Notes: generated by a model from the sequence alone, not told the origin. Positions 2,361 to 58,711 are shown, counted from the stretch's first letter. The stretch is 64,000 nt of DNA from Fibrobacter sp. UBA4297 (GCF_002394865.1 NZ_DGUZ01000012.1:94021-158020), one strand, 5' to 3'. Numbers and translations: made by a program.

Positions 2361-2368
2361 TATTTTTT
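2361..2368 (+). promoter_or_regulatory. TAnnTTTG-like box (TATTTTTT) 6 nt upstream of the nadB ATG
   Basis: Position and shape match the other -7-type boxes in this window, but the last base is T rather than G. Confidence 0.3.
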
Positions 2369-2374
2369 CTATTT

Positions 2375-3994: not shown

Positions 3995-4016
3995 ATCTTT
4001 TTCTATATAGGGCAGC

Positions 4017-10100: not shown

Positions 10101-11057
10101 TTCGTCGCGGATTTCGCCACCACTACCCGTAGCGGCACCCGGGAACGGAGAAATGGCCGTCGGGTGGTTGTGGGTTTCGACCTTCATCAAAATATCGACT
10201 TCTTCGTTGTGGAAGTCGTACTTGTTCGTACGCGGATCCGCGTAGAAACGTCCAGCCGTTGCACCTTTCATCACAGCCGCGTTATCCTTATAAGCGCTGA
10301 AGATGTTGGAATTGTGAAGCTGGTAAGTGTTCTTGATCATCTGGAACAAGGACTTGTCCTGCTTCACGCCATCGATGGTCCATTCGGCACCGAACACCTT
10401 GTGACGGCAGTGTTCCGAGTTGGCCTGAGCGAACATGTAAAGTTCAACGTCGGTCGGGTTGCGCTTGAGTTCAGTGAAGTTCTTGACGAGATAATCGATT
10501 TCGTCGGCGGAGAGGGCAAGACCCATTTCCTTGTCAGCCTTCACGAGAGCGTTGCGGCCTTCGGTAAGCACCGGAATCACATTGAGCGGACGCGGTTCTT
10601 CCTTGCTGAAGAGAACTTCGAGAGCGGCAGTGTCGGCAAACACAGCCTGCGTCATGCGGTCGTGAATCTTGGCAGAAATCTTTTCACGGGCGCCAGCTGG
10701 AGCAGCACCTTCAAACTTCACGTAGTAAGCAATAGCACGTTCAATGCGCTTGATAGCCGGGAGGCCGCAGATGTGAGCGATATCGGTCGCTTTGGAGCTC
10801 CACGGGCTAATCGTACCCGGACGCGGGCAGACCACAAAGAGTTCACCTTCGAGCGCCTTGACTTCGCGCATCGGGCCGTAATGAAGGACCTTTTCGAGCG
10901 TTTCCTTTTCGGAATCGGTCAGGTCGGCGGACAAATCCACCACATGGAGGAATTCGGCATACACAGATGCAACCGGAATCCCAGCGGCCTTAAAATCAGA
11001 TGAAAGCTTTTGCAGACGGAAATCCGACAGAGCCGGAGTACCACGAAGAATGAGCAT
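7182..11057 (-). CDS. purL: Phosphoribosylformylglycinamidine synthase (single-chain large PurL)
   Basis: 1291 aa. It starts [18 protein letters not shown] like enterobacterial PurL and has a C-terminal GATase region (GVCNGCQ). Confidence 0.9.
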
Positions 11058-11090
11058 TTTGACCTCTTTTAGCCTAAATATTTTACGCCG

Positions 11091-11098
11091 CAAATATA
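11091..11098 (-). promoter_or_regulatory. -7-type box TATATTTG upstream of purL
   Basis: Exact TAnnTTTG 33 nt before the ATG, with an AGAGG SD in between. Confidence 0.45.
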
Positions 11099-11123
11099 GC
11101 AATTTGAGGATATTTTCAAACGG

Positions 11124-11147
11124 AAAAAGCTCCGCAAAATGCGGAGC
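11124..11147 (-). terminator. hisD terminator
   Basis: GCTCCGC/GCGGAGC stem followed by TTTTT on the minus strand. Confidence 0.6.
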
Positions 11148-11193
11148 CGTTTCATAAAATGAAAATAGAACTGTGTAAGGCGATTCCGGCATA

Positions 11194-14243: not shown

Positions 14244-14245
14244 GG

Positions 14246-14302
14246 TTGTAAAGATAGAAAAAAAGAGTAGACAGTAGGAAGTAGACGGTAGGAAGTTGTT
14301 AG
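14246..14302 (-). promoter_or_regulatory. About 55-nt promoter cassette: box TATCTTTA (14249-14256) plus upstream heptad array (14268-14295)
   Basis: Near-identical to 17826-17881 upstream of slyD. Confidence 0.5.
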
Positions 14303-17825: not shown

Positions 17826-17881
17826 CCCAAATGTAGAAAAAATAGTAGACAGTAGGAAGTAGACTGTAGGAAGTGGTTAGA
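17826..17881 (-). promoter_or_regulatory. Promoter cassette: box TACATTTG (17828-17835) plus heptad array (17846-17873)
   Basis: Homologous to 14246-14302. Confidence 0.5.
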
Positions 17882-17912
17882 CGAGAGATCGCTTCTCCTC
17901 AAAGAGGATAAC

Positions 17913-17941
17913 TCAACTAAGGCAACAAGTTGCCAAGTTTC
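17913..17941 (+). repeat. 29-nt repeat TCAACTAAGGCAACAAGTTGCCAAGTTTC
   Basis: Identical copy at 44810-44838. It contains the hairpin GGCAAC-aa-GTTGCC. Confidence 0.8.
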
Positions 17942-18023
17942 GTATAGCTGGTAGACGAGAGACGAAAGAGTAATAATCGTGGCTTCGCTACCATATGTTG
18001 ATAAAAAAATGCTTTTTTCACAA

Positions 18024-18069
18024 CCTCTCGTCTTTCGTCTGTAGGACCTTTGGTCCGTTCTTTCGTCTA
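18024..18069 (-). repeat. TAGACGAAAG hairpin module (copy 1)
   Basis: The minus strand reads TAGACGAAAGAACGGACCAAAGGTCCTACAGACGAAAGACGAGAGG. Its first TAG is the nadE stop codon. Confidence 0.8.
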
Positions 18070-19542
18070 ACAAGAAACCTGGCTCTCGCGGTATTCACCG
18101 CCAAAGGCATGCCCACTCACGGAAAGAATCGGCGGGAACTGGATGCGCTTTGCCAAGGCAAGTCCCTTGAACCTACGGTACCAGAAGCGCATGTCTTCGA
18201 GCACAGCTTCGGTCGTTGGCAAATGAGCCTTAAAATAGGCGGCATCCACACCGAGCGTTTCGCAAATCAAGCCTTGCGCTGCAAGCTTTTCGGTAAATTC
18301 AAGACTCACGCCCTTCTCGACCCACATCGCAAAGAGTTTGTCATGGTACGGGTAAAGAATCGGGTCACCCTTGCCTTCATCGACATTCATTGCATCACTG
18401 AGTTCTGCGCTCGCCGGGATGTCAATAGACGCCTTCGGGATGATTTCAGAATCGCGATTGATGTAACGGGCTAGCGCATAGACCTGAGTTTTCCACAAGT
18501 CGCCAAGAGCGCACATCACACCGCAAGTATCGCCGTACAGCGTGCAGTAACCGACCATGGCCTCGCTCTTGTTGCCATTGCAAGTCACGCCGGCCCCCAC
18601 CACAGATGCAACCGTCGAAAGAATCGAAGCAGAGCGCGTCCTCGCCTGCAAGTTCTCGTGATTGATACCTGCAACCTTCATCACCGTATCGTTACGCACA
18701 AAAGAGCAACGTTCCAGCGTATGGCAAACAGATTCAATGATGTCCGAAATCGGGGCGACCATGTACGGCGTTCCAAGGTTCTCGGCCAAGTCACGTGCCG
18801 CATTCTTCGTCGTATCGGAATTGAAGCGCGTGGGCATGTTCACGAGGTAAACATTCTGCGGTCCAATCGCTTCGGCATAAAGAGCGGCAGAAACGGCGCT
18901 ATCGATACCGCCACTTGCCCCAATGACCATGCGCGAGATATGGAACATCTTCAAGTTCTCGCGAATCATGAACACGAGCGCATCGTGAATCTCGGCAATT
19001 TCACTTGTGTAAGGCTTTGAGGATTCCGCATAGACCTGCACCTGGCCATCGACAAATTCAATAACTGCCTCCGCTTCGCTAAAGAGCGGCATTTCAAAAA
19101 CGATTTTGCCATCGCAGTCAAACACGCGGCTACCGCCCGAAAGCGCATAAATATTCTTTCCGGTATTGTCAGTCCCGACGCCATTGAGGCAAACGACAGG
19201 CATGGCACAATCCTGAGCCAAGTGCGAAAGTTCCTTGTTTTCGACTTCGCGACGACCGACCACATAAAAGTCACTGCCATGAGTCACATGCGCCACATTC
19301 AAAAGCGGCGTATCGTCAAGCACGTCCCCGCACAAGAAGAACGGCATGTTGCCCGCATACTTGCGGATCTCGGCCCAGTCTACGGGGAGCGCCCTGTTGC
19401 TTGGCCCAGTAAGTGCATATCGTGGAAACACAACGCAATCTACTTCGGCAGCCTTAGCACGGTCAAAAGCGGCCTTCATCGTTTGCATATTTGCCTGCAC
19501 ATTGCCCGGCAAAATTTTCATCTGTACCACATAAAGTTTCAT
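18067..19542 (-). CDS. nadE: NAD+ synthetase with a short, apparently degenerate N-terminal CN-hydrolase-like domain
   Basis: PP-loop GASGGIDSAV and 491 aa from MKLYVVQ. VVFPRYALTG occurs where glutaminase-active enzymes have PE. Confidence 0.7.
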   Translation of the reverse strand: MKLYVVQMKILPGNVQANMQTMKAAFDRAKAAEVDCVVFPRYALTGPSNRALPVDWAEIRKYAGNMPFFLCGDVLDDTPLLNVAHVTHGSDFYVVGRREVENKELSHLAQDCAMPVVCLNGVGTDNTGKNIYALSGGSRVFDCDGKIVFEMPLFSEAEAVIEFVDGQVQVYAESSKPYTSEIAEIHDALVFMIRENLKMFHISRMVIGASGGIDSAVSAALYAEAIGPQNVYLVNMPTRFNSDTTKNAARDLAENLGTPYMVAPISDIIESVCHTLERCSFVRNDTVMKVAGINHENLQARTRSASILSTVASVVGAGVTCNGNKSEAMVGYCTLYGDTCGVMCALGDLWKTQVYALARYINRDSEIIPKASIDIPASAELSDAMNVDEGKGDPILYPYHDKLFAMWVEKGVSLEFTEKLAAQGLICETLGVDAAYFKAHLPTTEAVLEDMRFWYRRFKGLALAKRIQFPPILSVSGHAFGGEYRESQVSC

Positions 19543-19565: not shown

Positions 19566-19596
19566 ATAAAAAAATGCACCGCCCATGAGCGATGCC
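19566..19596 (-). terminator. Terminator of the 19697-21058 lipoprotein gene
   Basis: GCATCGC/GCGGTGC stem followed by a T-run on the minus strand. Confidence 0.5.
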
Positions 19597-19664
19597 TTTT
19601 TTCAAACGCATTATAAAATGCAAGTTGGCAGAACTTAGTTAGCAGAGCTTAGAGAGACGAGCAA

Positions 19665-19699
19665 TGTTCTAAGTTCTAAGTTCTAAGTTCTAACTACTA
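19665..19699 (-). repeat. Heptad stop array beginning with the CDS stop
   Basis: The minus strand reads TAGTAGT TAGAACT TAGAACT TAGAACT TAGAACA. Confidence 0.8.
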
Positions 19700-21058
19700 C
19701 TCGTACTGCGGAGCTTCGAAAGAGGTCGGGATCTTAGGCGTATCCGGATCATGATGGACGAACGAGAAACCGCTAATCTTGTTGGTATTGCGATCAGTCG
19801 GTCCTGCCTGGAGCTGTCCATGGATGCTCGTTGTGCACTTATCCGGATGCAAGCACCCCTTATTGCGCATCATCAAGTGGTAGCCATAGATTTCCCAGAC
19901 GCCTTCTTTGGATTCAACATTTTTTGTACCATCGAAACCTGAGATTTCATAAGTACCATCGGCCTTGAGTGTAAATTTCCAATCGATATTATCTTTTTTA
20001 GCCTGCCATTCACCGACAAAATCGCTAGCCTTTTCGTATTCATATTCGCTAGCTTCAACATCGCAGCTCATCGTCGTTTTCGTTTCGCCATTAGAAGACG
20101 AGATTTTGTTGTCAGTTCCGACAGAATAGGTGTACATTGAATAAACTGGCTTGTTATAGTATGCCGGGCGCATCAAGAGCGTGCTACGCTGGATGTCATA
20201 ATGACCGCCAATCCAGTAGGCAACCTTTCCGTCAGCCGCATTTTCGACGATATACGAATTATCGAAGAACGTAAATGTTCTCGTCGTATCACCATCGGTG
20301 CATTCGAAAATTTTGTTCTGAATGTCGGCAGCCTTGGAAACTTTGCCCTTCGTCACGGCGACGCTAGTCTTCACCGCTTCGCTATATTCCTTCGAGCCAT
20401 TGACCGCATACTTGACGACGTTATCCTTGTCGACGATGAACGAAAGCGTGAAACCGTCCTTGGCCTTGAGCTGTTCCAGAATCTTTTTAACACCATCCGT
20501 TTCTGCATACTGCTTGCCGACATTGCCATCGACGAATTTCACTTCGCCATTTGCAAAATCCGTATAAGTCACAAGCCACATTTCATCTAGAATGCGGAGA
20601 GCGATAAGGCCCTGCTTACTGCCGGTCGACAGGTAAACTGTCTGGTCAAAAATCTTGAGTTCATAGTTCTTTTCGAGGTCTGCAAGCTTTGCAGCGCGAG
20701 CGCCTTTCGGCGCGTCCGCAGAAGACGAAGAATTCGGAGTTTCAGCACTTGAAGAAGACTTCGCCTCATCCTTAGCGGAAGAAGAGGAGTTCGATTCAGA
20801 CTTGGAATCGGAAGACTTATTATCCTTGGAGTCCGAAGACTTCTTGTCGTCATCTTTTGAATCCGACGACTTCTTATCTTCTGTTTTGGAAGATGAAGAC
20901 TTCACTTCGCATTCATCGGAATCGCAATCATCTTCTTCGGAAGAAGATGATACTTCTTCTTGGTTATTCTTTGGAGAAGAAGGGCTATCGTCATCTCCGC
21001 AAGCAGCGAAGAGGAAAGCCGAGGAAACTAAAAGAGCAAGTAACTTTTTCTTATTCAT
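19697..21058 (-). CDS. Secreted lipoprotein with a Ser/Asp/Lys-rich linker, function unknown
   Basis: Lipobox LLVSSAFLFAAC and a low-complexity SSDSKDD repeat linker. Confidence 0.6.
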   Translation of the reverse strand: MNKKKLLALLVSSAFLFAACGDDDSPSSPKNNQEEVSSSSEEDDCDSDECEVKSSSSKTEDKKSSDSKDDDKKSSDSKDNKSSDSKSESNSSSSAKDEAKSSSSAETPNSSSSADAPKGARAAKLADLEKNYELKIFDQTVYLSTGSKQGLIALRILDEMWLVTYTDFANGEVKFVDGNVGKQYAETDGVKKILEQLKAKDGFTLSFIVDKDNVVKYAVNGSKEYSEAVKTSVAVTKGKVSKAADIQNKIFECTDGDTTRTFTFFDNSYIVENAADGKVAYWIGGHYDIQRSTLLMRPAYYNKPVYSMYTYSVGTDNKISSSNGETKTTMSCDVEASEYEYEKASDFVGEWQAKKDNIDWKFTLKADGTYEISGFDGTKNVESKEGVWEIYGYHLMMRNKGCLHPDKCTTSIHGQLQAGPTDRNTNKISGFSFVHHDPDTPKIPTSFEAPQYE

Positions 21059-21240
21059 GTTATGCAATATAAATTATTTAGTCCAATTTAGACCAAGAAA
21101 AGTTTACAAATCACACAAAAAAGCTGTAAAACAGCCTTGTCCATTCCAAGAATGTATTATATGGATGTTTTTAAGTAGGCAGAACTTAGAGAGAAGAGCA
21201 ATGTTCTAAGTGAGATTATCGCTTCGCTCTAATCTCAACT

Positions 21241-21298
21241 GCTAGGCTCAGAAATAGGCTTGCAAGCAATCCTGCTTCACTCGCCTTACGCAGTTGTC
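21241..21298 (-). repeat. 58-nt conserved 3'-UTR-type element (copy 1)
   Basis: 55 of 58 nt are identical to 35903-35960. It contains the palindrome GCTTGCAAGC. Confidence 0.8.
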
Positions 21299-21312
21299 TA
21301 AGTTCTAAAATC

Positions 21313-22179
21313 CTAGAACGGGCAGCCCGGATAGTAGTCTAGGTCGCGTTCGGCATCCTCGATGGAAGGCGCGGCATCGTACAGAAAACCCGCCAAAGCC
21401 TGCTCGGCAGACACGCGCTCGCCACCAATCCAATTTTTCAGAACCGCAATGCGTTTCGAGATCCACCACGGCAGCGGGACCATCAGGTGGTGCATCCCGG
21501 CGTCAGTCAGCACATGCTTAGCCATTTCCGCCATCGTCATTACGGTTGAACCCGCAAGGGCATAAGTCTTCCCCACGGCACTCGTCATAAGCCCTGCCAC
21601 GGCAATTCCCTTGACCAAATCCACACTGCGGACCGGGCGTTTTAAGCACTTGCCGCCACCCGGCATAAAATAGACAGGGAATCGTTTCACGTAATCGCGG
21701 AACATGTTGAACTCGACACCGCCCCCATCGCCAATCACAAGCGTCGGGCGCACAATCGTCCAGTCAAGTCCGGAGGCTCGCACCAAAGCCTCCCCCTTCT
21801 TTTTGCTTTCGCCATACGGCGTGAGTACCGGGTACGTTACCGAAATGCTAGAAACATAAAGGAAGCGCCGCACACCCGCAAGTTTGCAGGCTTCAACAAC
21901 ATTGCGCGTCCCCCACGTATTCACATGCTCGAACGCCCCGCGTTTTGTAGATAAAAGAATTGCCGCCAAGTGATAGACGACATCGACGTTTTCGAACGCC
22001 CCTCGGATAGAATCAAAATCGGTCACATCGCCGTAACGGACGTCCACCTCGCTCGGTAAGGACTTCGCCAAAGAATCGCCCGGAAGCGTCAAGACGCGGA
22101 CACACACTCCCCGTGCTATTAGTTCCCGGCACAACGCCTTCCCTACGACGCCGGCGCCACCCGTTAAAAGAGCAATCAT
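21313..22179 (-). CDS. NAD-dependent epimerase/dehydratase family (SDR) protein
   Basis: Rossmann motif LLTGGAGVVGKAL. The start lies 2 nt after the dnaA stop. Confidence 0.65.
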   Translation of the reverse strand: MIALLTGGAGVVGKALCRELIARGVCVRVLTLPGDSLAKSLPSEVDVRYGDVTDFDSIRGAFENVDVVYHLAAILLSTKRGAFEHVNTWGTRNVVEACKLAGVRRFLYVSSISVTYPVLTPYGESKKKGEALVRASGLDWTIVRPTLVIGDGGGVEFNMFRDYVKRFPVYFMPGGGKCLKRPVRSVDLVKGIAVAGLMTSAVGKTYALAGSTVMTMAEMAKHVLTDAGMHHLMVPLPWWISKRIAVLKNWIGGERVSAEQALAGFLYDAAPSIEDAERDLDYYPGCPF

Positions 22180-23644: not shown

Positions 23645-24089
23645 GATCTAAAAAACCAATCCAAAGTATAAAAGAGCAAGCAAAAAATAAGAAAGGAAAT
23701 CCGAACCACAAGCACCCCAACTTTTTTTTTTTCGAAATCCCTATTTTTCGCTCAAAAATGGCAAAAAATTTTTAGAAACATTTTTTATCACACTTTTTCC
23801 AGTTTACACCACCCTTACGAACGTATGTGTAACAAAATTATCACTTACTATTAGCACAAGTTATCAACAGGTATTTTTTCAAACATCCCTTGACAAGATT
23901 TTCCTTACTTTAAGCATACAAATTCTTATACAAATGGCGAAATTCGCTCAAAAACGCCACTTTTTAGCATTATAAAAAATGTAACTTGGTGAAAATCAAC
24001 AAGTTACATGCGGTGATTAGTTATTGATTTTTGGTTATTAGTCAATAGTCATTAGTCAGTAGTTTTTTTTGCTAATGACCTATTTAATT
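23645..24089. other. AT-rich dnaA upstream region; candidate dnaA control region or oriC
   Basis: 445 nt that is AT-rich by eye, with a T11 tract. DnaA-box-like 9-mers are TTATCACAC (23785), TTATCACTT (23838) and TTATCAACA (23861). There is no perfect TTATCCACA. Confidence 0.3.
24018..24066 (+). repeat. Longest heptad stop array (7 units)
   Basis: Reads TAGTTAT TGATTTT TGGTTAT TAGTCAA TAGTCAT TAGTCAG TAGTTTT. Confidence 0.8.
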
Positions 24090-24569
24090 CTAGACGTTTT
24101 GCGACTCGTTGCTTGGAGTAGACTGAGGCTCAGCCTTATTCTCACCAAGCTTTTCTTGCTGATGGTCAATCCTATTTTCAAGCAACTTTTCGATTTCAGG
24201 GAGCAGACGATCCTTCACACGATCAAGATACAAGCATTGCAGCTGGATCATGCGGTTGCGATGGCGACCGGCAAATTCCTGAATCCAGTGGCTCACGGCC
24301 TGCTGGCGGTCCTGGATTTTGTCATGCAAAGAACGCTGGATGAAAGTTCTCTGAACTTCCATATAGCGCTGCATATTGAACGGCATGCGGTAGGTTCGAA
24401 TAAACTGCTTCAACAACACCAACAAGCAAAGATGATCATTGCATTGATGATCTTGAATGAACTGCCGTAACTCTTCCAGATGTTTCTGGAAGAACGGCAC
24501 AATCGCTTTATCATCTATCTGATAAAGTTCAAGTTCATCCTGTTCTTTTGTCGCTTTATCGACTGCCAT
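24090..24569 (-). CDS. Hypothetical Gln/His-rich protein
   Basis: 159-aa ORF with an exact TAGATTTG box 4 nt upstream of the ATG. Confidence 0.5.
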   Translation of the reverse strand: MAVDKATKEQDELELYQIDDKAIVPFFQKHLEELRQFIQDHQCNDHLCLLVLLKQFIRTYRMPFNMQRYMEVQRTFIQRSLHDKIQDRQQAVSHWIQEFAGRHRNRMIQLQCLYLDRVKDRLLPEIEKLLENRIDHQQEKLGENKAEPQSTPSNESQNV

Positions 24570-27716: not shown

Positions 27717-29732
27717 ATGAACAAGAAAATCTTAGCACTGGGCTATACATCCTGCATTTCACTAGCAATACTTACAAGTTGCTCGGATTCTACGTCACCT
27801 TCTGGCGCTTTTTACAATCCAGACAGTGAAATCAATTCCAGCAATTCTGAATTCGCAGAAGAAATACAGTCAAGCAATTCCGAACTCACGCAAACCCCGG
27901 ATATTCCTGAAGGCGCGGGCATTTCAGAATCACCAACAAGCAGCACAACAGCTTCACAGCCGACTCCGGCCTCAAGCAATTCCGACACAAGCTCTGCCCC
28001 AAGTTCCGCAAGCAATCCGGCAAATAGCGTCGAAACCAGCTCGTCAAGCAGCGCCATTGCAACAAATCCAGGCACAGAACCCGCACAAGCCAACGAAAAT
28101 ACGGGAGGTCGCCCCGTCATCACTTACGCAGCAAGTGGCGCCACAGCCACAAATGCCGGAAACTGCATCACCGTTACAGGTGGTAGCGTCACCATCAAAT
28201 GCGGTGGCGAATACGACTTTAGCGGTTCTTACAGCGGTAGCGACGCCCAAATTCTCGTGAACACCGCCAAGACGGACAGTTCCGTTTACTTGAACATGAA
28301 AGGACTCACGCTTACAAACACGGCAGACGCCCCAATTTACATTCAGAAAACAAGCAAGGCTTTTGTCGTCGCGAAGAACGGCACGACCAACACATTCACA
28401 GACGCATCTACAAGAACAAAGACTTACAACTACACCAACGACTCCGGTGAAGCCAAGACTGATACGACGGGCGCATGCATTTACGCGAAGGACGACCTCA
28501 CCATCAAAGGCGAAGGTACGCTTATCGTCAAGGCAAATTACAACAACGGTATCCATACCAGCAATGACTTGAAGGTGAAAAACGGCCTCATCACCGTGAA
28601 CGCAAAGAACAATGGTCTCAAGGGCAAAGGCTCCGTCGAAATCAGCGGCGGCACCATCAACATCACCACAGCCGAAGGCGACGGCATCAAGAGCGATACC
28701 GAGGACGCTGCAGATTTGGCAAACGGCAAGGGTTCCATCGAAATCACGGGCGGCACCATCACCGTGACATCCGCATTTGACGGCATCACAGCAGCAAACG
28801 CAGTCATCGTCGCCAATGGAGAATCCACAGCACCGGCAATCAAGATTACATCTGGCGGCGGACAATCCTGCCTCAGCTTGAACACCAGCACGACCGGCGG
28901 ACGCGGCGGAATGGGCGGTTTTGGCGGGATGGGCGGCAGTTCCTGCTCCACCACCGAAAGCATGAAGGGCATCAAGGGCGATTCAAGCATCACTATTAGC
29001 GGTGGCGTTATCGACATCAACAGCCGTGACGACGGTCTCCACAGTAGCGGAACTATCACACTCAGTGGTGGAACAACGACAATCGCCACAGACGACGACG
29101 GCGTCCACGCCGACAAATCTCTCTACGTCAAGGACAATGCGAACGTGAGCGTGACCATCGCTTATGAAGGCATGGAATCTCCGGACATGAATTTCGAAGG
29201 CGGCATCACAAGCGTCATCACCACGGACGACGGCTGGAATGCAGCCGGCGGCACAAGCACGACCTCCACAGGCAACACAGGTCGCGGCGGCTGGGGCGGA
29301 GCAGGCGGAGGCATGGGCGGTAGCACCGGGAATCTCAAGGTCTCTGGCGGTTACCACTACGTTTACGTGGGCACAGGCGACACGGACGGCATCGACAGCA
29401 ATGGCGGCATCAGCATCACCGGAGGCGTCATCATCGTGGAATGCCGCATGAACGGTGGTATGGGCGGCATGGTCGATTCGGACGGAACGACATCGATTAC
29501 AGGCGGCAAGTTGCTCGGATTCGGCACAAACAACTCCGAAGAAGGCACGCAGTACAGTGTCAGTTTCACGACAGACAACTACTACGGCACAGCGGATATC
29601 GCATTCAAGCCGAGTTTCTCCGGAAGCCGCATGGTTTCTAACGTAGGAAAGCCGAGTGTCGTGAATAGCATAAGCGGCATGACCAAGACTTGCTTCGGGA
29701 ACAGCACCGACCGCTGCGTTTATACAAATTAG
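27717..29732 (+). CDS. Surface lipoprotein, beta-helix carbohydrate-binding (Cthe_2159-like) family
   Basis: Lipobox ILTSC, a Ser/Pro linker, repeated ITGGTITV...DGI(K/H) units and Gly-rich inserts (GGRGGMGGFGGMGG). Confidence 0.5.
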   Translation: MNKKILALGYTSCISLAILTSCSDSTSPSGAFYNPDSEINSSNSEFAEEIQSSNSELTQTPDIPEGAGISESPTSSTTASQPTPASSNSDTSSAPSSASNPANSVETSSSSSAIATNPGTEPAQANENTGGRPVITYAASGATATNAGNCITVTGGSVTIKCGGEYDFSGSYSGSDAQILVNTAKTDSSVYLNMKGLTLTNTADAPIYIQKTSKAFVVAKNGTTNTFTDASTRTKTYNYTNDSGEAKTDTTGACIYAKDDLTIKGEGTLIVKANYNNGIHTSNDLKVKNGLITVNAKNNGLKGKGSVEISGGTINITTAEGDGIKSDTEDAADLANGKGSIEITGGTITVTSAFDGITAANAVIVANGESTAPAIKITSGGGQSCLSLNTSTTGGRGGMGGFGGMGGSSCSTTESMKGIKGDSSITISGGVIDINSRDDGLHSSGTITLSGGTTTIATDDDGVHADKSLYVKDNANVSVTIAYEGMESPDMNFEGGITSVITTDDGWNAAGGTSTTSTGNTGRGGWGGAGGGMGGSTGNLKVSGGYHYVYVGTGDTDGIDSNGGISITGGVIIVECRMNGGMGGMVDSDGTTSITGGKLLGFGTNNSEEGTQYSVSFTTDNYYGTADIAFKPSFSGSRMVSNVGKPSVVNSISGMTKTCFGNSTDRCVYTN

Positions 29733-29764
29733 AACTTAGTTGGTAGAGCTTAGAACTTAGTTGA
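29730..29764 (+). repeat. Heptad stop array beginning with the CDS stop
   Basis: Reads TAGAACT TAGTTGG TAGAGCT TAGAACT TAGTTGA. Confidence 0.85.
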
Positions 29765-29767
29765 AAG

Positions 29768-29799
29768 TAAAAAGACGAGCTATAATGCTCGCCTTTTTC
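29768..29799. terminator. Bidirectional terminator between convergent genes
   Basis: Reads AAAAAGACGAGC-tataat-GCTCGCCTTTTT. Confidence 0.65.
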
Positions 29800-29822
29800 A
29801 AATTTCAATTTTACAGCATTCG

Positions 29823-29865
29823 CCTCTCTCGTCTTTCGTCTACCAGCGAAGCGATCTTTCGTCTA
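29823..29865 (-). repeat. TAGACGAAAG-family module (variant) after pilT
   Basis: The minus strand reads TAGACGAAAGATCGCTTCGCTGGTAGACGAAAGACGAGAGAGG. Confidence 0.65.
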
Positions 29866-29867
29866 AA

Positions 29868-30968
29868 CTACATCCAGCCGCGATCAGATGTACCAGAAAT
29901 ACCACGAATCTTAAGGTCAAAGTCATCGCGGTTCGTCGCTGCATTCATTGCCGTTTCCAGCGAAATCTGCTCGTTCTGGTAAAGTTCGAGGAGCGCCTGA
30001 TCGAACGTCTGGCTATGGTATTGAAGGTGGCCTTCGGCAACAGCTTGTTCCACCATGTCAATCTTGTTCTTATCCTGGATGTATTCCTTGATAGCGCCCG
30101 TATTCACGAGAATTTCGGCAGCCGGGACTCGCCCCTTGCCATCCTTCGTCGGCAAAAGACGGAGCGAAATAATGCCAGCCAAAACTTCGGCAAGCAAAAG
30201 ACGCACTTCATCATGCTGGTGCGGCGGATACATCGAAAGCACACGGTGAATCGTTTCCACAGCATTCGTCGTATGGATAGTCGCAAAGACCATGTGGCCA
30301 GTATCTGCTGCGGTAAGCGCAATCTGCATCGTTTCAAGGTCACGAATTTCGCCCACGAGGAGCACATCCGGATCCTGACGGAGCGCAGCACGGAGTGCAT
30401 TCGCATACGAAAGCGTATCCACGCCGATTTCACGCTGCGAGATAATCGCCACGTTATCACGATAAAGGTATTCAATCGGGTCTTCGACCGTAATGACGTT
30501 CACAGATTCTTTCTGATTGATGTAGTCAATCATCGAAGCAAGCGTTGTGGACTTACCAGAACCCGTCGTACCCGTCACAAGCACAAGACCGCGCTTAGTC
30601 AAAGCCAAGTCACGAATCACTTCGGGCAAGTGCAAATCTTCGAAAGCAGGAATCACAGCCTTGATATGACGAATCACAACCGCAATTGTTCCACGCTGAC
30701 GGAAAACGTTCACACGGAAACGGCCCATATCACGAGCGCCCACGGCAAAGTCGCATTCCTTATTAGCCTCAAAACGCTGCTTCTGGTCGCGATTCATGAT
30801 ATCATCCAAGAAGGAATCCATCATAGCGCTATCGATGCGCACATCAAAAAGTCTTTGCAAAGCACCATTGATACGATAAACCGGCGGAACACCAACTCGC
30901 AGATGCAAGTCAGACGCCTTGCGGTTTACCATTTCACGCAAGAGCTGTTCAATGCGAAGTTCAGCCAT
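29868..30968 (-). CDS. pilT: Type IV pilus retraction ATPase PilT
   Basis: Walker A GTTGSGKST and the GHMVFATIHT block. The start lies 2 nt after the upstream stop. Confidence 0.85.
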   Translation of the reverse strand: MAELRIEQLLREMVNRKASDLHLRVGVPPVYRINGALQRLFDVRIDSAMMDSFLDDIMNRDQKQRFEANKECDFAVGARDMGRFRVNVFRQRGTIAVVIRHIKAVIPAFEDLHLPEVIRDLALTKRGLVLVTGTTGSGKSTTLASMIDYINQKESVNVITVEDPIEYLYRDNVAIISQREIGVDTLSYANALRAALRQDPDVLLVGEIRDLETMQIALTAADTGHMVFATIHTTNAVETIHRVLSMYPPHQHDEVRLLLAEVLAGIISLRLLPTKDGKGRVPAAEILVNTGAIKEYIQDKNKIDMVEQAVAEGHLQYHSQTFDQALLELYQNEQISLETAMNAATNRDDFDLKIRGISGTSDRGWM

Positions 30969-34061: not shown

Positions 34062-35708
34062 TTAACGAAGATATTTAAGGTCTACGAGGGCAAAATTGCC
34101 ATTTTTCCCGTTTCCGATGAGCAAATAGACCCTGAGGCCAAGGCTATCCAGCCAGTTAATGTTGAAATCCTCACGATAGCCCGAGAAATTGGACACCACC
34201 AACAGTTCACGGCAGCCGGTGCGGTTGCAGATGTTTTCCATCTGAGAAAGGGGCCCGAGCAGGTGCTTGCGGTTCTCTTCGGAGAGCTTTTCGGGTTCGC
34301 CGCTCACGCAGCCAAGGATCTCGATGCCGGGAATCACGTTGTAGCTATCGAACCAGTTGTTCAGGGAATCTTCGCGACCGCCGAGCAGAATGGAGCGGTG
34401 GCGTTTTTTTGCAAAAATACGGTAGAAATAGTTTATCCAGAACGCAACGCGGCGCCAAGCAAGGAGAACCAGCGGGATAAAGAGACTGGAACAGACAGCA
34501 TAGACGCACCACCCAATACTGGGATAGATTGTAGACTTGTCTCCCGGGACATAAGAAAATTGGGCAAAGTAACGGAATACCTCATACCCACCAACAGCAA
34601 GAAGGTTCAGTGGCACAAGGTACTGCAAGAACTTTTCGCCCTTGAGGCTGGATTCCGTGTATTCCCCACGGAAAATAAGAAAGACCATATTAACAATGGC
34701 GACCAAGCCAACAAGCCACCAGTCATCAAAAGTCGTTATCACCCCGATGGATTCCTTAATGGATGTAAAAATGCATCCGTCATTTCCCAAACCGGGCAAA
34801 AATACAAGTGCCCACAGCGCCACAACGCCCAAATCGAGGAACATCTTCCAGAACTTTGGAATCAGGCGCGAGAACATGCCCACGAATGCAGCAAATAAAA
34901 TACCGAAAGACACGAGGAAATTTGGGACAAAATAAAGATCCTTGTGCTTTTTCACGAAGATAAGCATAGCCTTGTAGAAGTCCACGTAGGAACCCCAACG
35001 GCGCGTGCGGCAGCTTTGCCCCTTAAAATGCAGAATGTTCGTGACCGGCGTGTAATAGTTCTTGAGGCCCATCTGCTTTGTACGGAAGCAGAGGTCCAGG
35101 TCTTCGCCGTACATGAAGTAGTCTTCGTCAAAGCCGTTCAGCTTTTCATAGACATCTCGACGGATGCAGAAGAACGAGCCGCTAATGGCATCGACTTCAA
35201 TCATCTCGTCCGGGTCGGCGTACGTCATGTTGTAGCTGGCAAGCGTTTTGCTCTTCGGGAACATCGCCGCAAGACCAATCGTCTTTGAGACGGCAGACAC
35301 AATCGTCGGGAACGAACGGCGGCAAGCCCACTGTAGCGTTCCGTCTTCGTTCAAGATGCGGCAGCCGACCGTACCCGCTTCCGGGTGTTCTTCCATGAAC
35401 TTGAGCATTTCGCAGAAGGCGTTCTTCGAGATAATCGTATCAGGATTGATGAAGAACAGGTACGGCTTGGTCGCATGCTTTTCAGCCAAGTTGCAGCCCT
35501 TACCAAAACCCAAGTTTTCATTGGAGTCAATCCATTCCACTTCGGGGAAGAAGTTCTTGATTTCGGGAATAATCGGCTCGTTGGAACCGTTATCCAGAAC
35601 AATAATCTGCGAATCGATACCCTCGCAGGCGTCGCGCACAGACTTGAGGCATGCCGGAATGAAGTCGCAAGAGTTATAAGCAATGATAATGACAGAACAG
35701 GAAAGCAT
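34062..35708 (-). CDS. GT2 glycosyltransferase fused to a multi-TM domain and a C-terminal Rossmann-like module
   Basis: N-terminus SVIIIAYNS...VLDNGSNE (GT-A DxD context), at least 6 hydrophobic helices and 548 aa. Confidence 0.6.
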   Translation of the reverse strand: MLSCSVIIIAYNSCDFIPACLKSVRDACEGIDSQIIVLDNGSNEPIIPEIKNFFPEVEWIDSNENLGFGKGCNLAEKHATKPYLFFINPDTIISKNAFCEMLKFMEEHPEAGTVGCRILNEDGTLQWACRRSFPTIVSAVSKTIGLAAMFPKSKTLASYNMTYADPDEMIEVDAISGSFFCIRRDVYEKLNGFDEDYFMYGEDLDLCFRTKQMGLKNYYTPVTNILHFKGQSCRTRRWGSYVDFYKAMLIFVKKHKDLYFVPNFLVSFGILFAAFVGMFSRLIPKFWKMFLDLGVVALWALVFLPGLGNDGCIFTSIKESIGVITTFDDWWLVGLVAIVNMVFLIFRGEYTESSLKGEKFLQYLVPLNLLAVGGYEVFRYFAQFSYVPGDKSTIYPSIGWCVYAVCSSLFIPLVLLAWRRVAFWINYFYRIFAKKRHRSILLGGREDSLNNWFDSYNVIPGIEILGCVSGEPEKLSEENRKHLLGPLSQMENICNRTGCRELLVVSNFSGYREDFNINWLDSLGLRVYLLIGNGKNGNFALVDLKYLR

Positions 35709-35710
35709 AT

Positions 35711-35756
35711 TAGACGAAAGAACGGCGCTTTGCGCCTACAGACGAAAGACGAGAGG
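35711..35756 (+). repeat. TAGACGAAAG hairpin module (copy 2, opposite orientation)
   Basis: Reads TAGACGAAAGAACGGCGCTTTGCGCCTACAGACGAAAGACGAGAGG. The flanks are identical to copy 1 and the stem is changed compensatorily. Confidence 0.8.
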
Positions 35757-35825
35757 AAAAAATACAATGGGGCTGTTCACAGACACATTGTTGAGCCAAG
35801 AATTTTTGACTCATAAAACTTATAT

Positions 35826-35833
35826 CAAATCTA
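35826..35833 (-). promoter_or_regulatory. -7-type box TAGATTTG
   Basis: Exact TAnnTTTG about 118 nt upstream of ATG 35708. Confidence 0.3.
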
Positions 35834-35902
35834 TAAACCATACAAATAACCTTCATATTTTGTGCGAAGCACCATTATAAAACCGTTGCACAAGTGCCAA
35901 AT

Positions 35903-35960
35903 GCTAGGCTCAGAAATAGGCTTGCAAGCAATCCTGCATCATTCGCCTTACGCATTTGTC
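35903..35960 (-). repeat. 58-nt conserved element (copy 2)
   Basis: See 21241-21298. Confidence 0.8.
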
Positions 35961-36000
35961 GTCTCTCGTCTAAAGGACCGTAGGTCCGTTCTTTCGTCTA
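35959..36000 (-). repeat. TAGACGAAAG hairpin module (copy 3)
   Basis: The minus strand reads TAGACGAAAGAACGGACCTACGGTCCTTTAGACGAGAGACGA. Its first TAG is the stop codon of the 35998-36711 CDS. Confidence 0.8.
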
Positions 36001-36711
36001 AGCCAGGCCCAGTCGCAGTTTCAGCACGAGGAAGAAAGCTTCGGAGATGATTCCGCCGCTCATCTTGGAGGTGCCACGGGTGCGGTCCGTAAAGATGATG
36101 GGGATTTCCTTGACTCGGAGGCCCTTCTTCCAAATCTTGAAGGTCGTCTCGATCTGGAAGCAGTAACCGTCACTCTTCATCTTGTCGAGGTTCAACGCCT
36201 GCAATGCTTCACGGCGGAAGCACTTGAAGCCGCCAGTCGCATCGCTAATCGGAAGGCCCGTCACAAGTCGCGTATAGACATTTGCGCCATAGCTGAGGAT
36301 TAAGCGGCGGAGGTCCCAGTTCACAACGCTAATGCGGTGGTCCTGGTAGCGGCTGCCAAGCACGAGGTCGGCATCTTCGGCAGTTTCCAAAAAGCGGTTC
36401 AAGTCCGTCGGAGAATGGCTAAAGTCAGCATCCATTTCAAACACGCGTTCGTAATCGCGTTCAAGCGCCCACTTGAAGCCCATCACGTAAGCTGAGCCAA
36501 GGCCCATCTTGCCTTTACGGCGAATCAAGTGGATTCGAGGATTCTTGTCGGCCTCGGCCTGAACGAGGTCACCCGTTCCATCCGGGGAGCCATCGTCCAC
36601 GACCAAAATTTCTAGACACTTATTCTGTTCCAAAATTGCCGACATGATGAGGAGGATATTCTCCTTCTCATTGTAGGTAGGAACAATCACCAAACTCTTA
36701 GGGAACTCCAT
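35998..36711 (-). CDS. Polyprenol-phosphate mannose/glucose synthase-like GT2 (Dpm1-like)
   Basis: Motifs VIVPTYNEKENI and VVDDGSPDGT, with 237 aa. Confidence 0.7.
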   Translation of the reverse strand: MEFPKSLVIVPTYNEKENILLIMSAILEQNKCLEILVVDDGSPDGTGDLVQAEADKNPRIHLIRRKGKMGLGSAYVMGFKWALERDYERVFEMDADFSHSPTDLNRFLETAEDADLVLGSRYQDHRISVVNWDLRRLILSYGANVYTRLVTGLPISDATGGFKCFRREALQALNLDKMKSDGYCFQIETTFKIWKKGLRVKEIPIIFTDRTRGTSKMSGGIISEAFFLVLKLRLGLA

Positions 36712-36729
36712 TAAATACCTCTCTAAACA

Positions 36730-36737
36730 CAAATCTA
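36730..36737 (-). promoter_or_regulatory. -7-type box TAGATTTG
   Basis: Exact TAnnTTTG 18 nt before ATG 36711, with a GAGAGG SD in between. Confidence 0.4.
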
Positions 36738-43524: not shown

Positions 43525-43532
43525 CAAATGTA
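43525..43532 (-). promoter_or_regulatory. -7-type box TACATTTG, 6 nt from the ribE ATG
   Basis: Exact TAnnTTTG. The 15-nt TTTTTTCTACATTTG is shared with the slyD cassette. Confidence 0.45.
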
Positions 43533-43588
43533 GAAAAAAACTTACCCGTCCATTTTTTCCCATTCGCCGACAAAGCGCTTTTAGGAAT

Positions 43589-44773: not shown

Positions 44774-44809
44774 AATATTTTTCCTAGATCCTGCTCCTTC
44801 GAACCTAAT

Positions 44810-44838
44810 TCAACTAAGGCAACAAGTTGCCAAGTTTC
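44810..44838 (+). repeat. 29-nt repeat (second copy)
   Basis: Identical to 17913-17941. Confidence 0.8.
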
Positions 44839-44844
44839 ATATAT

Positions 44845-46127: not shown

Positions 46128-46550
46128 TCACGAAACCATAGACAAGGCATCCTTCGCAGAAAGCGCCTTGACCCTAGAAAACTTAAAATCCTTTATATTT
46201 TCTGTTACTATAAAGTCAACACGTTCCCGTGCGGCGCACTCCATCTGCAAGCCATCTTCAAGGTCCTTGCAATTTGGATCTGCTAATACAGCAGAGAACA
46301 TATCAGAACTTTCTTCAACAACATTAAAACGCGACAAAATCAGCTGAAGGAACAGCCGACGTTCCTCCACGGAAAAATGCTTGCGCGTGATATAAAACAA
46401 ATCCGTCAGAGAATGCGAACTGACAAAACCCGCAACATAGCCCATCAGACAACTCTTTATCAGCAGTGAAGATTCGTAGTGGCCGGTATTATCGGCAATA
46501 AGCCAGTTGGCAAAAATATTCGTGTCAACAAAAAGCTTAGTCAAGACCAT
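46128..46550 (-). CDS. vapC: PIN-domain toxin (VapC-like)
   Basis: LFVDTNIF (first acidic residue), DLEDGLQ and DFIVTENIKDF, with about 140 aa. It overlaps the upstream small gene by 14 nt. Confidence 0.7.
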   Translation of the reverse strand: MVLTKLFVDTNIFANWLIADNTGHYESSLLIKSCLMGYVAGFVSSHSLTDLFYITRKHFSVEERRLFLQLILSRFNVVEESSDMFSAVLADPNCKDLEDGLQMECAARERVDFIVTENIKDFKFSRVKALSAKDALSMVS

Positions 46551-46776
46551 ACCTCTCATCAAGGTAATCCAATTTTTCCTTGCGACAATCCATCACCGCG
46601 GCAGATTTGATACAGCCAGTGAACCTGCCGTACAGTTCATTCACCCTAGCATCGCTCATTTCGGGCTTGCGGAAACTGCGGATAGAATCAAGAACTGCAG
46701 CAAGAACACGGAGCTTTTCATCAAAGGAAAGCTCCCCCACTTCGTCTATGAATGTCTGCAGTTCTGTATTTGACAT
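46537..46776 (-). CDS. Putative antitoxin (family not recognised)
   Basis: 79-aa ORF overlapping the PIN gene start. A GGAG SD lies 11 nt upstream of the ATG at 46776. Confidence 0.5.
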   Translation of the reverse strand: MSNTELQTFIDEVGELSFDEKLRVLAAVLDSIRSFRKPEMSDARVNELYGRFTGCIKSAAVMDCRKEKLDYLDERYGLD

Positions 46777-48212: not shown

Positions 48213-48450
48213 TATAGCAATGTAGCACTTTATTGTTGTGGATAAGTCGCCCGATAAGGAATGGCGAACTGCTCCCGAAATTGGACTTCGTTTAAAATTT
48301 CAAACAAAGGGCGTCCTTTCAACACGAAAGTTCTACATTGCCAACAGACCAGGAAAAAAGAATTTCTGTATTGTTAACGTCTTGTTGACTTGTGTTTTTT
48401 TATATATTCTTGATGAAAATCAACATAAAAGGACCTTTCGTAATACTAAT

Positions 48451-49626
48451 ATGATTCGAGAAATTACAGTAAAGAATTACAAGTCGATTGTTTCTTTGAA
48501 TACGCATTTAAGCAGATTTAATGTGTTTATTGGAGCAAATGGTTGCGGAAAATCCAATATCCTTGAGTCGATTGCATTGGCAGCGGCGTCCAGCGCTAAC
48601 AAACTGGAACAAGAGTATTTTGACAATAGGGGTATTCGTTTTGTCGATCCTCTATTTATGCTACCAGCATTTGAAGATGTCGAAGCAAAAGAAATTGAAA
48701 TTATTGTGAACGGGGAATCTAATCAAACTATACAATCCAATATCTTTTTCAACCAGTCAGCAAAACCACCTCATTGGGAGGATCGGTCTCTTTCTTATAA
48801 TCGAATTATGGAACTTTTGCTTCAAAAAGTTGGAGATCATCCCAAAGTTTCAGATTTGCTGAATGTTTTAGAGGATGTTAAAAAAGCATCGGAGCATAAC
48901 GGCGATGATATTGTGAACATCGATATTCAAGAAAGTAATAGAAATTTTAAAATAACTCCGAGTATTCCTGGTTTCCAAAAATTCATGATTTATTCTCTTG
49001 AGGAGAGTCGCCTTCGCTCAATCGATGATAAAAAACAAATTCGACCCTTGGGAAATCGCGGAGAAGGTTTGCTACCATATCTGAAAGAATTATCTCAGAG
49101 ACCTAATGGAACAGAAATAATCCAGGAAATCAACGAAAATCTCAAGTTGTTGGACTGGTTTGAGGAACTTTCCATTCCATCGGGTCAGTTGTCATCTGAA
49201 GTCAATATTCGACTTCACGATAGTTATTTAAGAGAATCTCTTGAATATTTCGACCAGAGGAGTACAAATGAAGGTTTCCTCTATCTACTGTTTTATTTGA
49301 CTTTGATTATATCTGACGAAACCCCGAGTTTTTTTGCAATTGAAAATATTGACGCATCATTCAATCCAAAGCTATGCAAAGAAGTTACACGAAGACTTAT
49401 AGAACTAGCCAAGAAACATAACAAACAAATTATAGCAACAACCCATAATCCTGCTATTTTAGATGCTCTTGATTTAGATGATGAAGACGAAAAGCTTCTT
49501 GTCGTCCGTCGATCTGTAGATGGGCATACAAAAATTAATCCGATTAAGTATAAACCTGAGGCGAAGATGTCTTTATCTGAAGCTTGGCTTAAAGGTCTAA
49601 TTGGTGGGCTTCCAAACAATTTTTAA
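48451..49626 (+). CDS. AAA_21/ABC-fold ATPase (OLD/AriA/AbiL-type N-terminal ATPase class)
   Basis: MIREITVKNYKSI start, Walker A GANGCGKSN, signature-like STNEGF, Walker-B-like FFAIEN and H-loop ATTHNP, with 391 aa. Confidence 0.75.
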   Translation: MIREITVKNYKSIVSLNTHLSRFNVFIGANGCGKSNILESIALAAASSANKLEQEYFDNRGIRFVDPLFMLPAFEDVEAKEIEIIVNGESNQTIQSNIFFNQSAKPPHWEDRSLSYNRIMELLLQKVGDHPKVSDLLNVLEDVKKASEHNGDDIVNIDIQESNRNFKITPSIPGFQKFMIYSLEESRLRSIDDKKQIRPLGNRGEGLLPYLKELSQRPNGTEIIQEINENLKLLDWFEELSIPSGQLSSEVNIRLHDSYLRESLEYFDQRSTNEGFLYLLFYLTLIISDETPSFFAIENIDASFNPKLCKEVTRRLIELAKKHNKQIIATTHNPAILDALDLDDEDEKLLVVRRSVDGHTKINPIKYKPEAKMSLSEAWLKGLIGGLPNNF

Positions 49627-54089: not shown

Positions 54090-54091
54090 TT

Positions 54092-58702: not shown

Positions 58703-58711
58703 GACATTCTA

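Follow-up and report, generated by a model that had tools for sequence, protein, structure and literature searches.

We analysed a 64,000-nt stretch of DNA from Fibrobacter sp. UBA4297 (GCF_002394865.1, NZ_DGUZ01000012.1:94021-158020), referred to below as the window, in which the triplet TAG recurs at exactly 7-nt spacing in short intergenic arrays of the form (TAGN4)n. Positions are counted from the first base of the window. The arrays lie beside housekeeping genes (citramalate synthase, SlyD, NAD synthetase, DnaA and PilT), some of them begin on the stop codon of a gene, and at orthologous gaps of related strains they were found to be absent, resized or replaced. The arrays of the window and the features next to them are the following:

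29730-29764, plus strand: five-unit array TAGAACT TAGTTGG TAGAGCT TAGAACT TAGTTGA, identified by pattern search in the 3' untranslated region (UTR) of the 27717-29732 gene (Pfam Cthe_2159), whose stop codon (29730-29732, plus strand) is the first TAG.
29770-29800, plus strand: terminator-like hairpin of the intrinsic type, CGAGCtataatGCTCG (stem 29776-29791) and then a T run, directly past the array at 29730 and between convergent genes.
29824-29867, minus strand: TAG-led variant of a hairpin module (module X, see below), TAGACGAAAGATCGCTTCGCTGGTAGACGAAAGACGAGAGA, beginning 2 nt past the pilT stop codon (TAG 29868-29870, minus strand).
19665-19699, minus strand: five-unit array TAGTAGT, three times TAGAACT, TAGAACA, whose first TAG (19697-19699) is the stop codon of the 19697-21067 gene.
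19629-19656, plus strand: partner arm CAGAACT TAGTTAG CAGAGCT TAGAGAG, in NAG phase and convergent with 19665-19699.
19576-19595, minus strand: terminator-like hairpin downstream of the 19665/19629 pair and upstream of nadE, kept across strains while the array region varies.
14268-14302, plus strand, antisense to the genes: 35-nt element of five heptads, TAGACAG TAGGAAG TAGACGG TAGGAAG TTGTTAG (four strict units, 14268-14295), 24 nt upstream of the citramalate synthase start codon.
17846-17880, plus strand, antisense: second copy of the 35-nt element, TAGACAG TAGGAAG TAGACTG TAGGAAG TGGTTAG (four strict units, 17846-17873), immediately upstream of a promoter-like box of slyD.
24018-24066, plus strand, antisense to the genes: seven-heptad array TAGTTAT TGATTTT TGGTTAT TAGTCAA TAGTCAT TAGTCAG TAGTTTT, in a 445-nt gap (23645-24089) upstream of dnaA.
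243-284, plus strand: degenerate array TAGTTAT TAATAGT TAGTCAT TAGCAGA TTAATTT TAGAAAT (TAG in four of six units).
286-327, minus strand: degenerate array TAGTCTT TAGTTAA TGGTTAT TGGTCAG TAGTCAT TAGAGAT (TAG in four of six units), whose first TAG (325-327, minus strand) is the stop codon of the peptidyl-prolyl isomerase gene 325-2286.
21293-21315, minus strand: start of a degenerate array, TAGGATTT TAGAACT TAGACAA, at the stop of the 21313-22233 gene.

A strict array was defined as TAGN4TAGN4TAGN4TAG (four TAGs at 7-nt spacing), and 100 dinucleotide-preserving shuffles of the window were used as the control. The strict pattern gave seven overlapping matches corresponding to five loci in the window, and none in the 100 shuffles. 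A first reading of the window, made from the sequence only, had counted seven loci; five of them hold under the strict definition with four to five units each, and the remaining two (243-284 and 286-327) are real but degenerate, their non-TAG units being TAA/TTA or TGG. The array at 24018-24066, which it had given seven units, has TAG in five of the seven, and the strict part has four units (24039-24066). The three arrays said to start at a stop codon do so (29730-29732, 19697-19699 and 325-327). Degenerate versions had also been placed behind the SDR and slyD stops: the former is present, with TAG at 0, +8 and +15 from 21315 on the minus strand, and the latter is weak, with a TAA followed by TAG at +10 and +16. 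When all 64 trinucleotides were scanned at periods 4-15, arrays of at least four units were found in the window at period 7 only, and only for TAG/CTA or triplets overlapping it. Tandem Repeats Finder reported periods of 7 and 14 on the arrays, and their 7-nt units stand head to tail as in heptanucleotide simple-sequence repeats. In total, TAG-led elements make up about 18% of the intergenic bases in the first 48 kb of the window. An Rfam search at gathering thresholds detected no known RNA family in the window except tRNA-Glu, apart from one chance match to mir-27 (E = 0.9). Two specific origins were considered as well. A tRNA-derived origin of AGTTGGTAGAGC in 29730-29764 is unsupported, as no tRNA is located there and the spacers of the other arrays are unrelated. 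An identity of the array at 24039 with a DnaA-trio or origin element was rejected on the grounds that the period is 7 and not 3 and that there is no GC-skew switch at dnaA; because this switch is absent, the 445-nt gap is probably not a replication origin.

For comparison we used about 870 kb (873 kb) of related Fibrobacter DNA, consisting of loci and not of complete genomes and labelled here with L numbers. The set was built from 12 Fibrobacter loci around a gene of the 27717-29732 type and 52 loci from a metagenome scan with NAD synthetase. The 27717-29732 protein itself was found verbatim on rumen metagenome contigs, and its closest relatives in a species-level genome collection, with 68-80% identity, come from Fibrobacter metagenome-assembled genomes. 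In the comparison set 57 distinct arrays of up to 13 units were detected, all 57 of them intergenic and none within a called gene. Strict arrays at period 7 with a TAG/CTA core numbered 67 on the 873 kb, and unrelated cores and other periods came nowhere near this number. The 12 loci around the same gene contributed 13 further arrays with other spacers (GGNNT, GAAG/ACAG, TTAC, TGGT), and 24 non-Fibrobacter loci gave no array by the strict test and one by a relaxed test. The intergenic DNA of the window and of L007-L010 had autocorrelation peaks at 7, 14 and 21 nt; the signal was weaker in L006, L011 and L016 and missing in the more distant loci of the range L012-L017. Two Fibrobacter clades had densities of about 8-12 arrays per 100 kb, and a third clade (L012-L015 and L017) had none in 91 kb. 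A cyanobacterial origin of the window was rejected, as it contains no HIP1 (GCGATCGC) and its relatives are Fibrobacter. Arrays of a somewhat different make were observed in L077-L092, a Fibrobacter-like lineage with NadE about 58% identical, where the core is the palindrome CTAG (TAGGATC TAGGGGC ...) and TAG therefore stands in phase on both strands of one stretch. L112, an IMG/VR contig of an isolate genome, carries 9- and 11-unit TAGAACT/TAGAGCT arrays at 6419 and 10734, which is the spacer type of the window; this 'viral' contig is possibly a Fibrobacter prophage region.

The arrays were found to have a distinct position and polarity relative to the genes. Between co-directional genes, 15 of 46 arrays were in sense and 31 of 46 in antisense orientation to the flanking genes. 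The first TAG was located at most 9 nt from a gene boundary in 22 of 55 arrays, as compared to one of 55 for the last unit, and the end nearer to a gene boundary was the 5' end in 39 arrays versus 15 (p = 0.0015). Gaps with an array on each strand had them convergent in nine cases and divergent in none (p = 0.004). The two degenerate pairs of the window are likewise convergent, and 29730-29764 (plus) with 29824-29867 (minus) forms a convergent pair around the terminator, the latter variant being missing in L007. Among the sense-side arrays, the first TAG was the stop codon in 8 of 21, and the start fell within -3 to +5 nt of the stop in 16 of 21; the stop codon was in unit 1, 2 or 3 in 8, 1 and 1 cases, respectively. 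Looked at from the genes, 25 of 183 distinct gene ends with a TAG stop had another TAG at exactly +7. A fixed layout of stop, array and terminator is not a rule, since a simple terminator scan placed a terminator downstream of 5 of 15 sense arrays.

Solitary arrays (29730, 14268 and 17846) were predicted to be unstructured, folding no better than shuffles (z = -0.03 to -1.7). The degenerate arrays 243-284 and 286-327 together form a long predicted hairpin upstream of tRNA-Glu (71-144), with -27.7 kcal/mol for the pair at 236-330 (z = -4.4). The pair at 19615-19702 gave an imperfect predicted hairpin of -21.8 kcal/mol (z = -1.9), and the array at 24018-24066 has a short pairing partner at the 24090-24569 stop (fold z = -2.9). 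The arms of one block often differ in spacer type, as in L009.

Within the units only the triplet is constant. Over 268 units the composition was T 97%, A 99% and G 98%; the four positions behind the triplet are nearly free and make up 71 different spacer words. The core consensus is Y-TAG-D. This agrees with the view, already taken in the sequence-only reading, that the phase is conserved and not one repeat word. TAG differed in about 3% of the units, versus 44% of positions (mean 1.75 of 4) for adjacent spacers. The Fibrobacter arrays are also not near-identical copies of one word, as heptanucleotide simple-sequence repeats are: among the matches listed, the median share of distinct spacers was 67% in the Fibrobacter arrays versus 29% in TAG-heptamer repeats from viral contigs (p = 3e-7), the latter being mostly one or two words repeated. 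A C right after TAG was found in 2% of cases in the arrays versus 20% in the background, equally in sense and antisense arrays, and real TAG stop codons have C at +4 in 20%. A termination context as the cause of the missing C was rejected, as antisense arrays avoid it equally and real stops do not. A pyrimidine precedes TAG in 72% of the units versus 53% in the background. With Y before TAG the complement reads CTAA or CTAG, and 36 of the 57 arrays close all three frames on both strands. The variant units were CAG (5), TGG (4), TAA (4), AAG (3) and TAT (2).

A related module with a hairpin, module X, is anchored to stop codons in the same way. It consists of TAGACGAAAGAAC, a 5-bp GC hairpin and TAYAGACGARAGA, and its polarity rule is that of the arrays. 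The copies in the window other than the variant at 29824-29867 are:

18024-18070, minus strand: TAGACGAAAGAAC-GGACCaaaGGTCC-TACAGACGAAAGACGAGAGG, whose TAG is the nadE stop codon.
35959-36001, minus strand: copy whose TAG is the stop of 35998-36732.
35710-35756, plus strand: inverted copy, whose end is 2 nt from the start codon of 34062-35708.

The copies at 35710-35756 and 35959-36001 are 79% complementary and bracket an entire 289-nt gap. In the Fibrobacter loci the first TAG of the module was the stop codon of the same-strand gene in 12 of 14 distinct copies. Its flanks are invariant, and four of the five stem pairs were changed on both sides and still paired, i.e. the changes are compensatory.

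The comparison of orthologous gaps showed a fast turnover of this material. At the site of the 29730 array the terminator hairpin is kept and the segment between stop and hairpin varies between strains: L007 has a small hairpin and a different four-unit array, five strains have module X, and more distant strains have nothing similar. Among strains whose NadE proteins are 87-98% identical, the gap upstream of nadE holds as little as two TAGs and as much as ten-unit arrays with inverted partners. In the nadE-slyD gap several strains have minimal alleles, in which the stop TAG is directly followed by TTTTTTCTACATTTGG (a promoter-like box) and the slyD leader; at this place other alleles carry arrays in sense, the antisense element of 35 nt or a 287-nt mixture of repeats. 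The element at 17846-17880 is carried by L050 and absent from L049 and the minimal alleles. Between identical flanks in the same gap, L062 carries four TAGAACT units and L063 carries 13 heptads, of which 11 are TAGAACT and two TAGAGCT. A difference of one unit separates L009 from L010. Copy number thus changes between strains in steps of one unit. The junction at 35709-35997 between two glycosyltransferase genes, which is 289 nt long in the window, measures 3 nt in L016 (18114-18116) and 154-310 nt in six other strains. Because the L016 junction is only 3 nt, the whole gap of the window appears to be material added within an operon. Every long allele of this junction has an inward-pointing TAG-led element on each side, and these elements differ between the strains. 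Alignments of empty and filled sites gave clean insertions or deletions of 35-71 nt, and presence/absence polymorphism with clean boundaries, as in miniature inverted-repeat transposable elements (MITEs), was seen for L049/L050, L069/window, window/L042 and L016/others. The sequence-only reading would have been refuted by a collapse of all arrays into decayed copies of one mobile element whose phase is not conserved in orthologous gaps, and this applies by half. Arrays are not kept in orthologous gaps, but they do not collapse into one element either, and the occupants of the sites are again TAG-phased.

Modules at unrelated loci of the window were 81-95% identical, including the element TAGACAG TAGGAAG TAGACNG TAGGAAG TNGTTAG (14268 and 17846). 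The core of module X is flanked by 8-nt imperfect direct repeats, which could equally mediate deletion, and no unambiguous target-site duplication was found. Two other dispersed elements were observed in the window. A 63-nt element, predicted to be a closed stem-loop, occurs at 21236-21298 and 35898-35960 (94% identical) in unrelated gaps, and it looks like a separate small insertion element because its L042 copy lies inside a module X that is without it in the window. A 38-nt hairpin element with a GGCAACAAGTTGCC core occurs at 17909-17946 and 44806-44843 (95% identical), also in unrelated gaps.

Taken as a family, the arrays are best classed with the bacterial intergenic heptamer-repeat or repetitive extragenic palindromic (REP)-like elements, as a variant new to them. 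Among three roles guessed in the sequence-only reading, a REP-like family came nearest, because the arrays form a dispersed intergenic family. In the searchable literature on Fibrobacter repeats, heptamers and intergenic DNA, outside which most subscription journals fall, no earlier description was found. Many bacteria have more heptamer simple-sequence repeats than expected, with a marked excess in the intergenic DNA of Nostoc and Xanthomonas (PMC4692102; Mrazek 2007, in the summary given by PMC4679880). The short tandemly repeated repetitive (STRR) sequences of cyanobacteria, long simple sequence repeats and the Xanthomonas-Nostoc repeats GGGAATC and GGGGAYT (PMC4692102) have the same 7-nt period and are strictly intergenic and lineage-specific. 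They also occur on both strands, sometimes in inverted pairs, and closely related strains can differ in the length and sequence of the repeats next to one and the same gene pair. However, STRR-type families repeat one word almost perfectly, whereas in the Fibrobacter arrays only Y-TAG-D is constant, and the fixed polarity toward gene boundaries and the starts on stop codons are unlike them.

The TAACTGA direct repeats of Beggiatoaceae, Cyanobacteria and some Bacteroidetes (MacGregor 2015, PMC4679880) are similarly intergenic, stop-carrying heptamers that abut coding regions, are mixed with other heptamers and show 7-nt indels between strains, and the Fibrobacteres-Bacteroidetes-Chlorobi group is among their hosts. 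Read in tandem as the reverse complement, the commonest Fibrobacter unit, TAGTTAC, becomes TAACTAG, which may be compared with TAACTGA. TAACTGA is, however, one fixed word, located in the best-studied genome mostly just upstream of start codons and in forward orientation, whereas the Fibrobacter arrays are TAG-only with free spacers, and those in sense follow stop codons. REPs carry a conserved GTAG head. REPs, bacterial interspersed mosaic elements (BIMEs) and REPINs, which are inverted REP doublets mobilised by REP-associated tyrosine transposases (RAYTs; PMC3116915), resemble the arrays in being short, extragenic, dispersed and present in many copies, in their location at operon junctions and in 3' UTRs, and in their fast evolution within the genome. 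REPs often form inverted doublets able to fold as hairpins; the array pairs are always convergent, but their predicted folds range from z = -4.4 (236-330) to z = -1.9 (19615-19702) and their arms often differ in spacer type. Unlike REPs, the arrays are non-palindromic, predicted to be unstructured and without a fixed 16-mer core, and tandem 7-nt phasing is no REP feature. The units of the solitary arrays are not palindromic, the hairpin being found only in the associated module X, and no RAYT (Y1 transposase) was seen among the annotated genes of the window.

As the best explanation, which we hold tentatively and somewhat short of calling it probable, we propose that the TAG heptads are the outer arms of small repeat blocks that close all frames and are tolerated, and not gene-specific regulators. 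The blocks are clade-specific, intergenic, dispensable, quickly turned over, stepped by 7 nt and dispersed, with inward TAG-phased arms. Length changes in 7-base steps are what replication slippage would be expected to give. Because seven is not a multiple of three, all reading frames are closed within three units, and blocks whose outer ends close all frames on both strands would for that reason be unusually harmless. Repeat blocks may have been inserted where neighbouring genes once had only a few bases between them. A block could then directly abut a coding region, whichever way round it lies, or even provide the stop codon, without giving a fusion protein, and such blocks would be tolerated in a compact genome and persist.

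Several results weigh against this explanation. The null used for the anchoring to stop codons, in which arrays were placed uniformly in the present gap, is generous because present gaps are largely the inserted repeat blocks themselves. The spacer variety is far above that of generic TAG-heptamer repeats, and the pattern is not produced by slippage alone. TAA was not favoured among the variant units, so stop function is not visibly conserved, and arrays with a TAA or TGA core are all but missing (1 and 2 weak cases in the Fibrobacter set), though TAA is the commonest stop. The exclusive use of TAG, with a Y-TAG-D core that is independent of orientation, is therefore left unaccounted for, and it favours a sequence-specific reader, i.e. 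a copying enzyme or a binding protein. The avoidance of C would also seem to fit such a reader better than a termination context. Finally, no transposase, clear target-site duplication or excision intermediate was found in the window and the compared loci, and mobility of the blocks is suggested indirectly, by presence/absence differences and dispersed copies.

A copying enzyme, such as a transposase, recombinase or HUH/RAYT-type nuclease, is an unlikely yet real alternative. With the heptads as its recognition or cleavage sites, each block would amount to a miniature non-autonomous element whose terminal or subterminal repeats are the arms, TAG being kept as the target of the enzyme and not as a stop codon. 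Such an enzyme would explain why the arms are inverted at both block ends (the nine to zero excess of convergent gaps, and the module X pair 35710-35756/35959-36001), why the Y-TAG-D core is the same in both orientations and why TAG is conserved and TAA is not. Insertion at an existing TAG is also far commoner than at nearby positions, and the hairpin of module X, kept by compensatory changes between invariant flanks, behaves as REP-type substrates do. The absence of a transposase gene from the window and the compared loci and the lack of a clear target-site duplication speak against the enzyme, however, as do blocks whose two arms are of different spacer 'dialects' (L009) and a unit number that varies as in slippage.

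The reader could instead be a protein that stays bound. We regard it as distinctly unlikely that an undescribed oligomeric factor reads Y-TAG-D every 7 nt and that the arrays are genome-wide boundary marks and not selfish repeats; if they were, they would be insulators of translation, transcription or RNA decay. Because the arrays point inward from both flanking genes, an RNA or an exposed single strand leaving a gene would begin with the tract. A narrower version, that the arrays are the platform of a HutP-like oligomeric protein which recognises (X)AG at 7-nt intervals in single-stranded RNA or DNA and could mark or insulate gene boundaries genome-wide, appears quite improbable to us. HutP is not known outside the Bacillus group, which counts against this version, and a TRAP site has 9-11 (G/U)AG triplets with spacers of 2-3 nt. 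HutP binds XAG at a 7-nt period in two blocks of three triplets that flank a terminator stem, with a 12-17 nt linker, in a 5' leader, and TRAP also binds XAG (PMC2425495). The geometry that the sequence-only reading had given for HutP is correct, the model HutP RNA being (UUUAGUU)3 (PMC2425495). The sites of the Bacillus hut terminator thus share with the arrays XAG at a 7-nt period, free spacers and single-stranded RNA (PMC2425495), and an invariant triplet with free, heterogeneous spacers in unstructured RNA is the signature of TRAP/HutP sites. In line with the polarity of the arrays, transcripts entering a gap on either strand would begin with a run of UAG.

Unlike HutP sites, the arrays are located in 3' UTRs or are antisense, have 4-13 units in one block, occur at several loci within this one window and are dispensable between close strains. 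The array at 29730-29764 is a single five-unit block, with no phased XAG block in or past the hairpin at 29776-29791, and sense arrays follow stops instead of forming leaders. Phased TAG runs at period 5 or 6, as expected for TRAP, were absent from the window. A motif scan of the roughly 870 kb of Fibrobacter DNA gave no RRM or cold-shock protein, and Pfam scans of unannotated window proteins gave nothing nucleic-acid-binding beside the arrays. A HutP/TRAP-type riboregulator, in the sense of the binding platform suggested by the sequence-only reading, is not supported: 31 of 46 arrays between co-directional genes are antisense, sense arrays are not in leaders, a second XAG block across the terminator is lacking and close strains are array-free.

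Plain simple-sequence repeats, in which polymerase slippage copies a TAG stop and the four bases behind it and neutral drift follows, so that TAG is simply the stop of the founder, are a very improbable explanation. Among long simple-sequence repeats, heptamer units are the most frequent in many bacteria (PMC4692102, and Mrazek 2007 as far as summarised in PMC4679880), lengths change in 7-nt steps and the first TAG can be the stop codon; in unrelated viral contigs a long open reading frame (ORF) ended at unit 1 in 30 arrays, as compared to 7 and 12 at units 2 and 3, among the matches listed. However, the commoner TAA stops have seeded no TAA arrays, 31 of 46 arrays between co-directional genes are antisense, many arrays are not at stops, the low divergence of TAG next to that of the adjacent spacers does not suit neutral drift, and the same five-heptad element is present at several loci.

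A host-selected translational backstop, with UAGs in three frames to catch readthrough or frameshifted ribosomes, is barely credible: sense arrays do begin on a stop or at most 5 nt from it, three units cover all frames and TAG makes up 33-41% of Fibrobacter stops, but the majority of arrays lie in antisense or at a distance from stops, a further TAG in frame follows only after 21 nt, the same genes are without arrays in close strains, the +4 C avoidance is not shared by real stops, and a survey found no evidence of bacterial selection for fail-safe additional stops (PMC6764699). Such a dedicated role, also among the guesses of the sequence-only reading, is further opposed by the same Y-TAG-D core in antisense arrays, by the near absence of TAA- and TGA-cored arrays and by TAA not being a favoured variant. 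With regard to stop usage in all Fibrobacter loci, TAA is the commonest stop and TGA ends only about 10% of genes. The arrays were rejected as the cause of the high TAG usage, as the array-free Fibrobacter group also has 33% TAG.

With respect to gene expression, heptad repeats close to promoters can have an effect, as described for the TTTTGAT repeats of the Vibrio cholerae ctxAB promoter (bioRxiv 10.1101/2021.05.14.444153) and for Nostoc heptamer repeats near the recF and recO promoters (bioRxiv 10.1101/2022.06.06.494920), both of which can modulate expression. These repeats are likewise tandem 7-bp units by promoters or start codons with strain-variable copy number, and the arrays at 14268 and 17846 are located directly upstream of a promoter-like box. 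The V. cholerae and Nostoc repeats are, however, single-word and have known or suspected transcription-factor partners at particular genes, whereas no such partner or gene specificity was seen for the Fibrobacter arrays. The box itself, a T run followed by CTAnnTTTG (TTTTCTACATTTG), occurs at 17828-17840 (minus) upstream of slyD and at 43525-43537 (minus) upstream of another gene, and similar sequences are located at 14244-14262 (minus) and 2360-2379 (plus). It resembles the Bacteroidetes-type -7 promoter box, and the exact pattern is not enriched in the window (2 occurrences versus 1.2 expected from shuffles). In the minimal nadE-slyD alleles it directly follows the nadE stop codon.

The arrays are a major and apparently undescribed part of the non-coding DNA in a key rumen cellulose degrader. 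Their combination of a constant triplet, free spacers, a strict period and a fixed polarity is that of neither ordinary slippage nor ordinary REPs or MITEs. The function of bacterial heptamer repeats, a question open since the cyanobacterial STRR, becomes testable in Fibrobacter, whose strains offer natural alleles of 0, 4 or 13 units beside the same genes. The arrays are also hypervariable strain markers and likely breakpoints in metagenome assembly, and they matter for the definition of gene ends in metagenome-assembled Fibrobacter, because many stop codons are supplied or abutted by them.

Apart from the arrays, two features of the window were observed. Long ORFs run antisense across nearly the whole length of many real genes throughout the window, e.g. 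2369-4030 (minus) against 2375-3994 (plus) and 7251-10046 (plus) against 7182-11192 (minus); they therefore point to a strong avoidance of the codons TTA, CTA and TCA, and length-based gene calling is unreliable in the window. The region 52000-64000 is a low-GC (0.32-0.39) plus-strand gene cluster whose codon usage sets it apart from the remaining window, which makes an island gained by horizontal transfer probable. Just before this cluster are a gene for an AAA_21/AbiEii-like ATPase (48238-49626) and a PIN-domain gene (46128-46562).

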